Assembly: GCA_951406725.2 (NCBI GenBank)
Contig: OX597814.1
Span: 217,186,001 to 217,250,000 of the forward strand
Direction: 5' to 3'
DNA from: Octopus vulgaris
Lineage: Eukaryota
Length of the DNA stretch: 64,000 bases
How positions within the stretch are numbered: position 1 is the stretch's first letter; the number at the start of each line of letters is the position of its first letter. Below the pieces are notes generated by a model. The model had not been told where the DNA came from and searched no databases. It saw only the letters and a program-made list of their open reading frames with translations. This document shows, piece after piece, positions 4,338-24,983 of the stretch. The translations under genes were made by a program, and so were the position numbers.

Positions 4338-4853
4338 CATCATCATCATCATTTAACGTCCAGTTTCCGTGCTAGCACGGGTTGGACGGTTCGACCGGGA
4401 TCTGGGAAGCCAGGAGGCTACACCAGGTTCCAGTCTGATCTGGCAGTGTTTCTACAGCTGGATGCCCTTCCTAACGCCAACCACTCCATGAGTGTAGTGG
4501 GTGCTTTTTACGTGCCACCGGCACAGGTGCCAGGGGAGGCACAGGTGCCAGGGCAGCGTCCACGATCGGTTGGTGCTTTTTACGTGTCACCGGCACAGAA
4601 GCCAGTCAAGGCGGCGCTGGCATCGGCCACGTTCGGATGGTGCTTTTTACGTGCCACCGGCACAGGTATCACAACTACAATTTCCATTTGATATTTATTT
4701 TGATGTCGATGTACTTGACTCAACAGGTCTCCTCAAGCACAGCAGGTCACGTGCCACCGACACAGAAGCCAGTCAAGGCGGCGCTGGCATCGGCCTCATT
4801 CGGATGGTGCTTTTTAGGTGCACAGGTATCACAACTACAATTTCCATTTGATA
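4338..4853 (-). mobile_element. 3' UTR fragment of the RTE LINE family found at 19727
   Basis: Reverse complement of 21830-22250, including (GAT)n tail and repeated gtgccggtggcacgtaaaaagcacc units. Confidence 0.85.
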
Positions 4854-5295: not shown

Positions 5296-5729
5296 CGATT
5301 GTTGATATTAAAAGTAACTGAAAGAATGTTTAATATAAGAAACAATATAAACAAGTATATCCAACGAATGAGAATATTTTACTTTTCAGATAAATAAGTT
5401 CTAAGATATTTCATTTGAACAGTTCAGACTGGCTAATTGTATTTAATCTATTATATTTGTACATTTGATTGCTATATATAGAGGCGACATCCTTATCGGG
5501 CTTTATGTTAATATCAATGACTTGTCTTAACTGTAGTGGATTATGTAACAATCTCTGGTCCCTTCGGATTGACGGAATCCTTAGTTTGGCTGTTCTGATA
5601 ACATTTAAATGTATGTATGTATGTATGTATGTATGTATGTATGTATGTATGTATGGGCTCGCTATGGGCTCCGTGTGGGCAGGCATCTAAAAATTTTTGT
5701 GCATCTTGATGCTGACATAAGTTCCTTAC

Positions 5730-5812
5730 TTTTCCTGATGAGAAGGCGGCATAATGCACCCCTTATTCCTTCGAAATTAGGAATATGCAGCCTTCGAAAC
5801 ATATGTCGAAAA
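5730..5812 (+). ncRNA. Type I hammerhead ribozyme motif, canonical core
   Basis: Stem I uuuuc/gaaaa; CUGAUGA 5735-5741; stem II gaaggc-g-gcaua/uaugc-a-gccuuc; GAAA 5796-5799; palindromic stem III ACAUAUGU; GUC triplet 5805-5807. Confidence 0.85.
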
Positions 5813-5861
5813 TAAAATAAAGGAATTTTGTTAATTCGTCGCTCAACTCCATTCTTTCATT

Positions 5862-5864
<3 letters not shown>

Positions 5865-5893
<29 letters not shown>

Positions 5894-6712
5894 TGTATGT
5901 ATGTATGTATGTAGGTATGTATGCATGCATGTATGTATGTATGTATGTAGGTATGTATGTATGTATGTATGTAGGTATGTATGTAGGTATGTATGTATGT
6001 ATGTATGTATGTATGTATGTATGTATGTATGTATGTATGTATGTATGTATGTATGTATGTATGTATGTATGCATGTATGTATGTAGGTATGTATGTGTGT
6101 ATGTATGTACGTATGTATGTATGTAGGTAGGTATGTACGTATGTATGTATGTATGTAGGTATGTATGTAGGTATGTATGTATGTATGTATGTATGTATGT
6201 ATGTATGTATGTAGGTATGTATGTAGGTATGTATGTATGTATGTATGTATGTGTGTATGTATGTATGTATGTATGTATGTATGTATGTATGTATGTATGT
6301 ATGTATGTATGTATGTATGTATGTATGTATGTATGTATGTATGTATGTATGTATGTATGTATGTATGTATGTATGTATGTATGTATGTATGTATGTATGT
6401 ATGTATGTATGTATGTATGTATGTATGTATGTATGTATGTATGTATGTATGTATGTATGTATGTATGTATGTATGTTTGTATGTATGTATGTATGTATGT
6501 ATGTATGTATGTATGTATGTATGTATGTATGTATGTTTGTATGTATGTATGTATGTATGTATGTATGTATGTATGTATGTATGTATGTATGTTTGTATGT
6601 ATGTATGTATGTATGTGTATGTGTATTATGTATGTATGTATGTATGTATGTTTGTATGTGTGTATGCATGCGCGCGCGTGTATATGTGTTTGTGTGTGTG
6701 TGTGTGTGTGTG
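5865..6712. repeat. (TATG)n microsatellite ending in (TG)n
   Basis: Direct inspection. Confidence 0.97.
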
Positions 6713-19726: not shown

Positions 19727-22217
19727 GTATCAGACTGCCAAAAGAGAAGCTAGGAGACAGGTTTATTTAGCCAGAGGGGAAGCAGATAAGAAAAAATTTG
19801 CCAATGTTCTGCGCCGTGAGGACCAAAGACTTGAGGTATTTCGCGTTGCAAGACAGTGTGCGAGAGAGAATCGTGATGTGGTAGGAGAGAAATGTGTTCG
19901 CATGGATGATGGTTCACTTGCGCTAAATGAGGATGCAAAGAGAGAGGTTTGGGACGCCACTATGAAAGGTTGCTGAATAAAGAAAATGAATGGGATAAAG
20001 AGAGTCTGCCGAATGTCGACTCAACAGAGGGACCAGCTATCCGAGTTGGCAGTTCCTTGGTAGTTAAGGTAATAAGAGGCATGAAGACAGGGAAAGCCCC
20101 AGGCCCATCAGGAATCACTGCAGAGATGCTCAAAATATCTGGTAGTGTCGGCTATAACCTAGTCACCCGTATAGTTAACCAGGTGATACACGAAGGAGTC
20201 ATACCCAATGACTGTGTAGCAGCATAATAGTCAACTGCTACAAAGGTAAAGGTGACGCCCTAGATACAAATAACTACAGGGGTATCAAGCTGCTGGATCA
20301 GGTAATGAAGGTTACGGAGAGGGTCATAGCCCAACTAATTAGAGAGAGAGTTAGTTCAGATGAGATGCAGTTTGGATTCGTGCCAGGGAAAAGCACCACT
20401 GATGCCATATTCCTGGTAAGACAGCTGCAGGAGAAATATCTAGCCAAAGATAAGCCCCTGTACCTGGCTTTCGTTGACATTGAGAAAGCCTTCGACAGGG
20501 TCCCTCAATCCCTTATCTGGTGGTCAATGAGGAAACTAGGGATAGATGAATGGTTAGTCAGAGCTGTGCAAGCCATGTACAGGGACGCTGCTAGTAAGGT
20601 GAGGGTTGGCAACGAGTACAGTGAAGAATTCCGGGTAGAGGTAGGAGTCCACCAAGGTTCAGTCCTCAGGCCCCCCTATTTATCGTAGTCCTCCAGGCAA
20701 TAACGAAGGAATTCAAGACAGGATGCTCCTGGGAGCTCCTCTATGCTGATGACCTTGCTCTAATTGCTGAGTCACTATCAGAACTGGAGGAGAAGTTTCA
20801 AGTGTGGAAGCAAGGATTAGAATCGAAGGGCCTTAGAGTCAACCTAGCTAAAACCAAAGTCCTAATAAGTAGGAAGGTAGACAAGTCACAAACGCCTTCA
20901 GGTAGATGGCCTTGCTCGATCTGTAGGAAAGGCGTAGGTAGAAACTCTATAAGATGCACCAAGTGTAAGCTATGGACACATAAGAGATGCACCAACGTTG
21001 AGGGAAGGCTAACTAGGAAGATAGTTTTTGTATGTGGCAGATGCACAGGAGCAATAAACACTGAAAATGCGCAGAGAGCAACTTCCGTCACATTCCAGGG
21101 AGAAAAACTAGAAATAGTTGATAGCTTCCGTTACCTAGGTGACCAAGTCAGTAGCGGGGGCGGGTGTGTTGAAAGTGTAACTGCTAGAGTAAGAATAGCT
21201 TGGGCAAAGTTCAGAGAGCTCTTACCTCTGTTAGGGACAAAAGGCCTCTCGCTCAGAGTAAAAGGCAGACTGTATGACGCATGTGTGCAAACAGCCATGC
21301 TACATGGCAGTGAAACATGGGCCGTGACTGCTGAGGATATGCGTAAGCTCGCAAGAAATGAAGCCAGTATGCTCCGATGGATGTGTAATGTCAGTGTTCA
21401 TACTCGACAGAGTGTAAGTACCTTGAGAGAAAAGTTGGACCTAAGAAGCATCAGTTGCGGTGTGCAGGAGAGACGTTTTCGCTGGTATGGCCATGTGGCG
21501 AGAATGGATGAAGATAGTTGTGTGAAAAGGTGCCACACCCTAGCTGTTGAAGGAACCTGTGGAAGAGGTAGACCCAGGAAAACCTGGGACGAGGTGGTGA
21601 AGCACGACCTTCGAACTTTAGGTCTCACCAAGGAAATGACTAGTGGCCGGGACCTTTGGAAATATGCTGTGCGTGAGAAGACCCGGCAGGACAAGTGAGA
21701 CCATAACCCATGGCCTCAGTCCACTTATGCATACCTCTCCTTCTTGGGACACAAAACTCTACTTGTGAAGACCTGTTGAGGCAAGTGAAAATCAAAATCA
21801 AAATCAAAATTCAAAATCGATCAACATGAATGGAAATTGTAGCTGTGATACCAGCGCCGGTGGCACATAAGAGAACCATCCGAACGTGGCCGTTGCCAGC
21901 GCCGCCCCGACTGGCTTCCGTGCCGGTGGCACGTAAAAAGCACCATCCGATCGTGGCCGTTTGCCAGCCTCGCCTGGCCTCCGTGCCGGTGGCACGTAAA
22001 AAGCACCATCCGATCGTGGCCGTTCCCAGCCTTGTCTGGCACCTGTGCCGGTGGCACGTAAAAATCACCCACTACACTCATGGAGTGGTTGGCGTTAGAA
22101 AGGGCATCCAGCCGTAGAAACACTGCCAGATCAGGCTGGGCCTGGTGCAGCCTTCTAGCTTCCCAGACCCCAGTAGAACCGTCCAACCCATGCCAGCATG
22201 GAAAGCGGACGCTAAAC

Positions 22218-24346: not shown

Positions 24347-24983
24347 CGGCCCAGTGCATCCATGCTGCCAACAAAGCACGCGGAGTTCTGTTTTTGATTC
24401 GGCGGTCATTCGGAATGCTCACAGCAGCCATATTCCTGTGTCACGCTGGTGAGACCCATATTGGAGTACGGGATTCAAGCCTCTTCTCCTTATCTCCTCA
24501 AAGACATACATCATCTCGAAAGAGTCCAGAAGCTGGCTACCCGCATGCTTCTTGGTCTCAAGAATTTGTCTTATGAAGAAAGGCTGAAGACGCTTGACCT
24601 TTATTCTCTAGAAAAACGACGACGCCGTGGTGAACACATTCTCGCTCACAACATCATAAGCGGAAAGTGTAACCTCTCGAAAGAGCTGGTCTTCACTCCT
24701 GCTCCAGAGCGTCGGCTGCGGGGTCACTCCGAAAAGCTCTATCTGCGACGATTTCATCTCAATCGAAGGAGAGGGACTTTCTCCGTCCGGGTTGCGGATC
24801 CGTGGAATAAGCTGCCAGACGAGATAGTGAAGATGCCGACGACCGCTAGGTTCAAAGTCTCTCTTGACCAGAAATGGCCTGAACTCTTTGCATGAACACC
24901 TTCCCTGTACATAACTCCATGTCCCCCTACATGGCCTTGCTTTTTGCTTTTTGAGCCAAAAAATTAACTTAACTTAACTTAAC

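Follow-up and report, generated by a model that had tools for sequence, protein, structure and literature searches.

The insert at positions 5659-5864 of the window very probably represents the terminal repeat (pLTR), truncated to 206 bp, of a high-copy Penelope-like element (PLE) of the Hydra type, and the hammerhead ribozyme that it carries is likely weak and mainly dimeric in its action. The window is the whole 64,000-nucleotide stretch of Octopus vulgaris DNA that was analysed (contig OX597814.1, positions 217,186,001 to 217,250,000, forward strand). A first-pass annotation had noticed a complete hammerhead in an insert of about 210 bp lying within (TATG)n. The flanking repeats are present on both sides and the size was close, though the true bounds are those given above, and the identity of the insert as a Penelope-like fragment had been missed. 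The features are listed below in window coordinates.

5609-5655, plus strand: (TATG)n on the 5' side (repeat scan), likely the insertion target or its expansion
5652-5671, plus strand: 5' junction, where 9 nt are directly repeated (5652-5660, 5663-5671; from the sequence)
5659-5864, plus strand: very probably a truncated pLTR piece from a Penelope-like element of Hydra type, 206 bp, spanning -148 to +57 with the cut site as reference
5713-5734, plus strand: 5' strand of stem I including its predicted distal part (proximal 5730-5734, distal 5713-5727; folding)
5730-5734 and 5808-5812, plus strand: proximal stem I, UUUUC with GAAAA (from the sequence)
5735-5741, plus strand: hammerhead core CUGAUGA (from the sequence)
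5742-5795, plus strand: stem II domain of 54 nt, comprising 11 bp, a single mismatch and a loop region of 30 nt
5796-5807, plus strand: GAAA (5796-5799), palindromic stem III and C17, with the predicted cut after 5807
5808-5833, plus strand: 3' strand of stem I (proximal 5808-5812), internal loop and distal strand (5820-5833)
5864-6670, plus strand: 3' flanking (TATG)n of about 202 units (repeat scan)

The hammerhead motif is real: its CUGANGA/GAAA/NUH core and three stems are present in a type I arrangement, and the 11-bp stem II and open stem I are read directly from the sequence. The presence of all core parts was also borne out by a descriptor search. A loose hammerhead descriptor found two motifs in the window and none in 30 block-shuffled windows, and reversed-pattern controls gave no matches genome-wide, so the motif is not a product of chance. 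The stem II strands (5742-5753 and 5784-5795) form 6 bp, a G.A mismatch and 5 bp around the loop region 5754-5783, as first described except for the mismatch. The palindrome ACAUAUGU at 5799-5806 provides stem III and is followed by C17 at 5807, in keeping with the initial reading of a cut predicted after that nucleotide. Stem I had been given 5 bp. These are present but are not its limit, since a 2x7 internal loop is followed by 14 more predicted pairs (5713-5727 with 5820-5833; folding). A 5-nt duplication at 5808-5817, in the 3' strand of stem I, widens this internal loop; it occurs in the subfamily of the window copy and in L219 and L220, and is absent from most other subfamilies. The loop II region does hold the inner hairpin (AUUCCU 5765-5770 with AGGAAU 5779-5784) and the second GAAA motif (CCUUCGAAA, 5768-5776) proposed to allow an alternative fold. 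The second GAAA is found in only two of 26 aligned copies, which rules it out as a conserved alternative core. The geometry of the 11-bp stem II differs from that of the canonical tertiary contact between loops 1 and 2. Rfam hammerhead models did not match the motif, either at the gathering threshold or at E<=10, a miss probably explained by the 54-nt stem II domain.

The genome searched (G000, 2.8 Gb) contains many relatives of the insert. A 212-bp query around it returned 2,182 candidates, the best 40 of which were near-full-length and 97-100% identical, and many of these 40 had an inverted partial copy directly upstream. Two exact patterns matched 506 and 917 times, a gapped core pattern 1,630 times and a relaxed pattern 6,507 times, these counts being copies and not independent events. 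Some copies run upstream into an open reading frame (ORF) that ends in a GIY-YIG-type domain. A search for this domain gave 17,318 candidates, of which the best 150 were scored. The 206-bp piece was present in 26/26 loci (L031-L056), lying 3' of the ORF in loci picked by the nuclease protein. The parts of locus L047 follow one another as inverted piece, pLTR remnant, 5' UTR, ORF, 3' UTR, pLTR, tail and (TA)n; its cut sites are 3,560 bp apart and the ATG stands 264 nt past the cut. A sister subfamily, whose protein is 58-59% identical to that of the window's subfamily, forms a head-to-tail array with a period of 3,624 bp (L257, G000:C1:119513500-119523400), and one unit of the array has an intact ORF of 895 codons' worth of protein (895 aa). 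The element unit therefore measures 3.56-3.62 kb, with the ATG about 265 nt downstream of the cut site. Tandem or partial tandem units and inverted 5'-truncated copies are seen in the family, and the hammerhead is located in the family pLTR. Among 132 arms, 122 abut (TA)n, five abut (TATG/CATA)n as at the window copy and five abut other sequence. Within such microsatellites any target-site duplication would be masked.

A very improbable alternative is that the insert is a non-LTR retrozyme, i.e. a stand-alone hammerhead repeat of 200-400 nt amplified by rolling circle through circular RNA. Its 206 bp, low GC content, type I hammerhead and high copy number fit the short repeats described in PMC7229834, and a 2026 preprint argues for an origin of retrozymes from the pLTRs of PLEs (10.64898/2026.07.22.740005). 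Unlike the retrozymes as presented in the consulted part of the former source, however, the octopus repeat is not tandem, belongs to an autonomous element and ends away from the cut site. No head-to-tail array of a short unit (150-450 bp) occurred in 30 loci, copies come in a continuum of lengths reaching the full ORF, and the neighbours of copies are head-to-head inversions. None of the examined arms starts at the cut site, and the link to the ORF largely refutes this reading.

The Penelope-like assignment is supported by the encoded protein. The single ORF combines a reverse transcriptase (RT) of telomerase-like type with a C-terminal GIY-YIG nuclease. The longest frames contain DKT, FDISSFYPSI, MGSxDSAQIADLVG, YRDD and CxxC..E..N..CxH, and the motifs of the family protein are RW(L), DKT, YRDD, Y(I/V)G and CxxC..E..N..CxH. 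A structure model built from a 55-row alignment reached a pTM of 0.77 (pLDDT 34.6 for the single-sequence model), and its closest folds were telomerase RTs (E 1.9e-09). Pfam recognized GIY-YIG in 6/55 and RVT_1 in 4/55 of the aligned proteins; it had no match to the family's own first alignment row, and Pfam and PDB sequence searches with the family's own ORF gave nothing informative. The nearest named homologue comes from Argonauta hians. Beside family copies, the stretches L012:779-1198 and L029:229-577 look like GIY-YIG domains of other Penelope-like clades.

The motifs were compared by eye with the published alignment of the Hydra clade, whose definition, together with the link of its CxCX5C linker to (TA)n targeting, is given in PMC8557442. 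As far as the consulted portion of that source goes, the octopus family shares with the clade the single ORF with RT and C-terminal GIY-YIG, DKT, a divergent RT4(B), YRDD, the lack of CCHH and the CxxC and CxH around E and N, as well as (TA)n insertion, a hammerhead near the 3' end and inverted 5'-truncated copies. It differs in the linker. CxCX5C is missing from 5/5 family proteins, including the two subfamilies that are 58-59% identical, whereas 12/12 aligned relatives have it, as do, by pattern, 67 of the 73 homologues (among 120) whose C-terminal part carries Y(I/V)G. Its place is taken by an Asn/Ser-rich stretch of about 130 residues (632-751) that the model shows as disordered. In P0001, the nearest relative, such a stretch occurs together with the linker. 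The family also has RWL where the Hydra definition has RWK (RWK/R in 47/73 relatives). Its units of 3,560 and 3,624 bp compare with units under 3 kb reported for the clade, its 54-nt stem II domain with stem II loops of 3-10 nt in the Hydra rows of File S2 (PMC8557442), and its copies are in the thousands. The Hydra-1_Obim element in the supplement of the same paper has another hammerhead and keeps the linker, and the octopus family is therefore distinct from it. Judged by its protein and copies, the element likely works like a Hydra element and derives from one, even though it lacks the linker and is longer than the clade's elements.

The ends of inserted copies were mapped as arms on a natural copy, using 120 loci drawn in genome order from four short patterns; arms shorter than 34 nt or falling short of +45 were left out, by which two partner arms were lost. 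The 3' ends of 133 distinct arms fell into two fixed positions 157 nt apart, 63 at site 1 (about +57) and 67 at site 2 (about +214), with three elsewhere. Head-to-head pairs had one end of each kind in 47/48 cases. The sister subfamily behaved alike, with 19 and 22 of its 41 arms at the two sites and mixed pairs in 14/14. The mapping of junctions covered about 170 arms in all. Site 2 lies about 50 nt upstream of the ATG, hence the 157-nt tail corresponds to 5' UTR. The arms of 33/48 pairs overlap by more than 10 nt on the template.

For the 5' ends, 79 arms were used whose loci had been selected on sequence downstream of the cut; 40 of these arms were still at risk upstream. Stops in the interval -156 to -137 accounted for 21 of these 40, compared with 6% expected (P about 1e-15). 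Genome-wide, a non-template base directly preceded A(-152) in 79/416 matches (three matches in the control), and 29/30 inspected -152 junctions were true ends, six of these 29 being TA-flanked and 23 not. The pile-up of the sister subfamily is weaker and shifted (8/25 in -171 to -137, P 2e-4; 3/25 in -156 to -137, P 0.08). Ends at the cut site itself were not seen: 0/60 arms began at +1 and 1/60 ended near the cut (about -5 to -2) where 2.2 were expected, which makes this a weak test. Apparent 5' ends also cluster at +7/+9, and these were inspected too. Five of 33 distinct copies lacked the upstream core pattern and none began at +1; one of the five ends at -5 to -2, two are apparent joins via stem I complementarity, one ends near +9 and one has an internal deletion. 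The cluster was therefore rejected as a set of cut-site ends. As no examined copy starts at the cut site, the inserted copies likely derive from uncut RNA.

The sharp 5' stop at -152, upstream of the cut, is likely the transcription start, a position deduced from DNA ends. Contigs from four runs presumed to be RNA covered most of the element at L047, with no bearing on starts, ends or strand. It is possible, but less probable, that the same element has at -152 an RT stop or a joining hot spot, caused by ATTAT microhomology or RNA structure, and that the short copies are ordinary 5'-truncated 3' ends. At many -152 junctions the bases A, AT or ATT are common to the arm and either its partner or the TA repeat. 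The pile-up also tails off only toward -137, as a shoulder, about half of the arms continue upstream, and no clear excess of the G expected from a cap is seen (an extra G before the 5' stop in 30/79 versus 21/71, p = 0.30). Nevertheless, the stop rate at this single nucleotide (79/416) is about 60x the background of 0.3% per nt, although AT-rich sequence also lies just upstream. According to PMC6765202, in the part consulted, PLE transcripts begin within the upstream pLTR, which also speaks against the alternative.

The conservation of the ribozyme was examined in 26 aligned copies chosen across subfamilies. These related copies are not independent, and the search patterns themselves fixed the core positions and the first three pairs of stem II. 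In this set 91.5% of stem cells were paired, compared with 32-51% in slid controls. Both sides had changed in 8/20 stem pairs and in 6/11 pairs of stem II. The covariation score was 0.298 against 0.183 for shuffled alignments, none of 500 shuffles scoring as high, and slid controls stayed at <=0.09. Stems I, II and III covary across subfamilies, and RNAalifold recovers stem II unaided from the aligned copies. Conservation of the core in paralogues, which had been named as a check of the motif, is thus found in the 6,507 matches, together with covariation in all three stems.

Stem III indicates how cleavage may proceed. Its two central bases are UA, UG or CG in 6,402 of the 6,507 genomic matches (1,850 CG; 4,552 UA/UG). 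These are three lineage states of the stem III loop, each self-complementary between two copies, and this self-complementarity points to dimeric cleavage. The central loop pair also covaries, and its pairing is possible only between two molecules. The self-duplex of stem III is predicted at -7.0 kcal/mol, compared with +2.4 kcal/mol for the monomer hairpin, whose stem is 2 bp long. The hammerhead fold of the window copy lies 5.3 kcal/mol above the predicted minimum, and in 26/26 copies it lies above the minimum by 2.2-10.9 kcal/mol. Energy models underrate junctions of the hammerhead type. From these features the hammerhead likely self-cleaves weakly and mainly as a dimer, and tandem transcripts would be processed when two copies pair through stem III. 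The predicted weak and dimeric character matches that of metazoan PLE hammerheads, for which poor cleavage, as dimers, is described in PMC4209133 and similarly in PMC6765202, both consulted in part.

Efficient cleavage of the monomer, with help from the length of stems I and II and with a circular full-length RNA serving as template, is an unlikely alternative. An intact core with GUC, the long covarying stem II and the extended stem I speak for it, and a ligated circle would likewise give no 5' ends at the cut site. However, a circle has no 5' end and cannot account for the -152 stop. The two-base-pair monomer stem, the covariation of a pair formed only between molecules and the unfavourable fold of every aligned copy all argue against it as well. 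By the same features the word 'canonical', first used for this hammerhead, was an overstatement, given its 2-bp monomer stem III and a fold 5.3 kcal/mol above its competitor.

The window copy itself is solitary and is 99.5% identical to an unlinked copy, on which basis the insertion is recent. It begins 4 nt inside the sharp 5' stop of the family and ends at site 1. The 9-nt repeat at its 5' junction likely arose from microhomology joining. Being devoid of the putative start nucleotide and of a partner, the copy is probably inert unless a host transcript reads through it. Its description as the best candidate for an active ribozyme in the window accordingly went too far, in view of the solitary state, the unfavourable fold, the poor and dimeric cleavage reported for metazoan PLE hammerheads (PMC4209133, in the part consulted) and the lack of examined copies beginning at the cut site. 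The AATAAA noticed after the ribozyme is present at 5811-5816, but it overlaps the 3' strand of stem I (5808-5812), stands in the stem I internal loop and reads AGTAAA or is otherwise changed in several subfamilies. This lack of conservation rules it out as a polyadenylation signal. Domestication of the ribozyme by the host for a local function, e.g. 3' end formation with AATAAA, is hardly credible. An intact core and the nearby AATAAA could suggest it, whereas the recent age implied by the unlinked copy, the unconserved AATAAA and surroundings made of microsatellites and decayed repeats contradict it.

The following mechanism is the most likely one, its end positions being observed and its start site, priming and dimer cleavage deduced. 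The transcript would start at about -152 inside the upstream pLTR, and the element protein would nick both strands of a TA-rich repeat. Reverse transcription would then be primed at two fixed internal RNA sites (+57 and +214), one per strand. The cDNA primed at +57 on the 5' pLTR would traverse the uncut hammerhead and run off the 5' end of the RNA, giving a solo piece, and retention of both cDNAs would give a head-to-head join. At the window copy a single cDNA would have been kept and joined to (TATG)n via the short duplicated microhomology. Inserted copies would stem from uncut or re-ligated RNA. The overlap of arms in 33/48 pairs implies that twin priming on a single RNA would need strand displacement, or else two RNAs. 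A broader reading is a serious candidate that falls somewhat short of being probable. In it, every insertion of this lineage would be primed twice, once per DNA strand, at the two RNA sites 157 nt apart and on uncut transcripts starting 152 nt upstream of the ribozyme, so that the genome preserves a record of PLE integration. (TA)n would be targeted without the zinc-knuckle linker proposed to guide this bias, and the stem II domain of 54 nt would amount to a separate hammerhead architecture, holding the ribozyme off until two copies pair.

The most likely mechanism has a partial precedent in PAc, the Poseidon PLE of Anolis carolinensis (PMC11167929). According to the consulted part of that source, PAc in vitro has two RT start sites, unprocessed RNA as main substrate and protein-assisted cleavage; its tail is the distance between the two start sites and cleavage is dispensable. 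Two internal start sites (predicted ones in the octopus family) spaced by a tail, an AT-rich target and insertion from uncleaved RNA are common to both systems. The PAc tail measures 30-40 bp whereas that of the octopus family measures 157 nt, the PAc sites lie within the ORF whereas both octopus sites lie in the 5' UTR, and for PAc the start site did not differ between strands in vitro whereas the octopus sites are almost always split between the arms of an inversion (PMC11167929). Craig et al. report that the tail is often at one end only (PMC8557442, in the part consulted). Compared with the metazoan PLE hammerheads presented in the consulted part of PMC4209133, the octopus motif is likewise of type I, located in pLTRs, with a short palindromic stem III and a long stem II, and for the most part stands alone or in opposite orientations at distances of 100-700 bp. 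It differs in a far longer stem II domain with a 30-nt loop region, an extended stem I and a core that joins stem II with no additional base.

Other repeats were observed beside the family. A second small type I hammerhead occupies positions 39285-39251 of the window on the minus strand (CUGAAGA, 4-bp stem II, palindromic stem III AGUACU, 5-bp stem I). The insert around it has inverted ends at about 39860-39820 and 39160-39120 with TA-rich repeats at its borders, and is likely another Penelope-like family. Unrelated hammerhead-like motifs with a long loop II were seen at L056:1895-2031, L159:2643-2779, L143:854-995 and L165:838-977, hence several long-loop-II hammerhead families exist in the genome. 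On the plus strand of the window, positions 20212-21698 hold the ORF of a non-LTR retrotransposon, which is frameshifted and matches RT and PHD-like domains, and positions 24398-24895, for which Pfam gave no match, resemble what we take to be the C-terminal part of a LINE ORF. Related tandem units of 63-67 bp at 4500-4665 and 21856-22069 form another dispersed repeat.

Hammerheads in the pLTRs of PLEs, the Hydra clade, tails and inverted copies have already been published. The literature covered held no description of the octopus family, of any Hydra lineage devoid of the linker, or of the rule of one 3' end of each kind; most subscription papers, Repbase and Dfam lay outside this scope and the family may be catalogued there. 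As both Rfam and Pfam miss the family, such families are probably under-annotated. Overall, the octopus family allows questions raised by Craig et al. on PLEs, namely the formation of tandem and inverted ends and the bias toward microsatellites, to be tested on an element whose ORFs are intact, whose young copies number in the thousands, whose priming sites are predicted exactly and whose start is predicted as well, and which by nature targets (TA)n with no linker.
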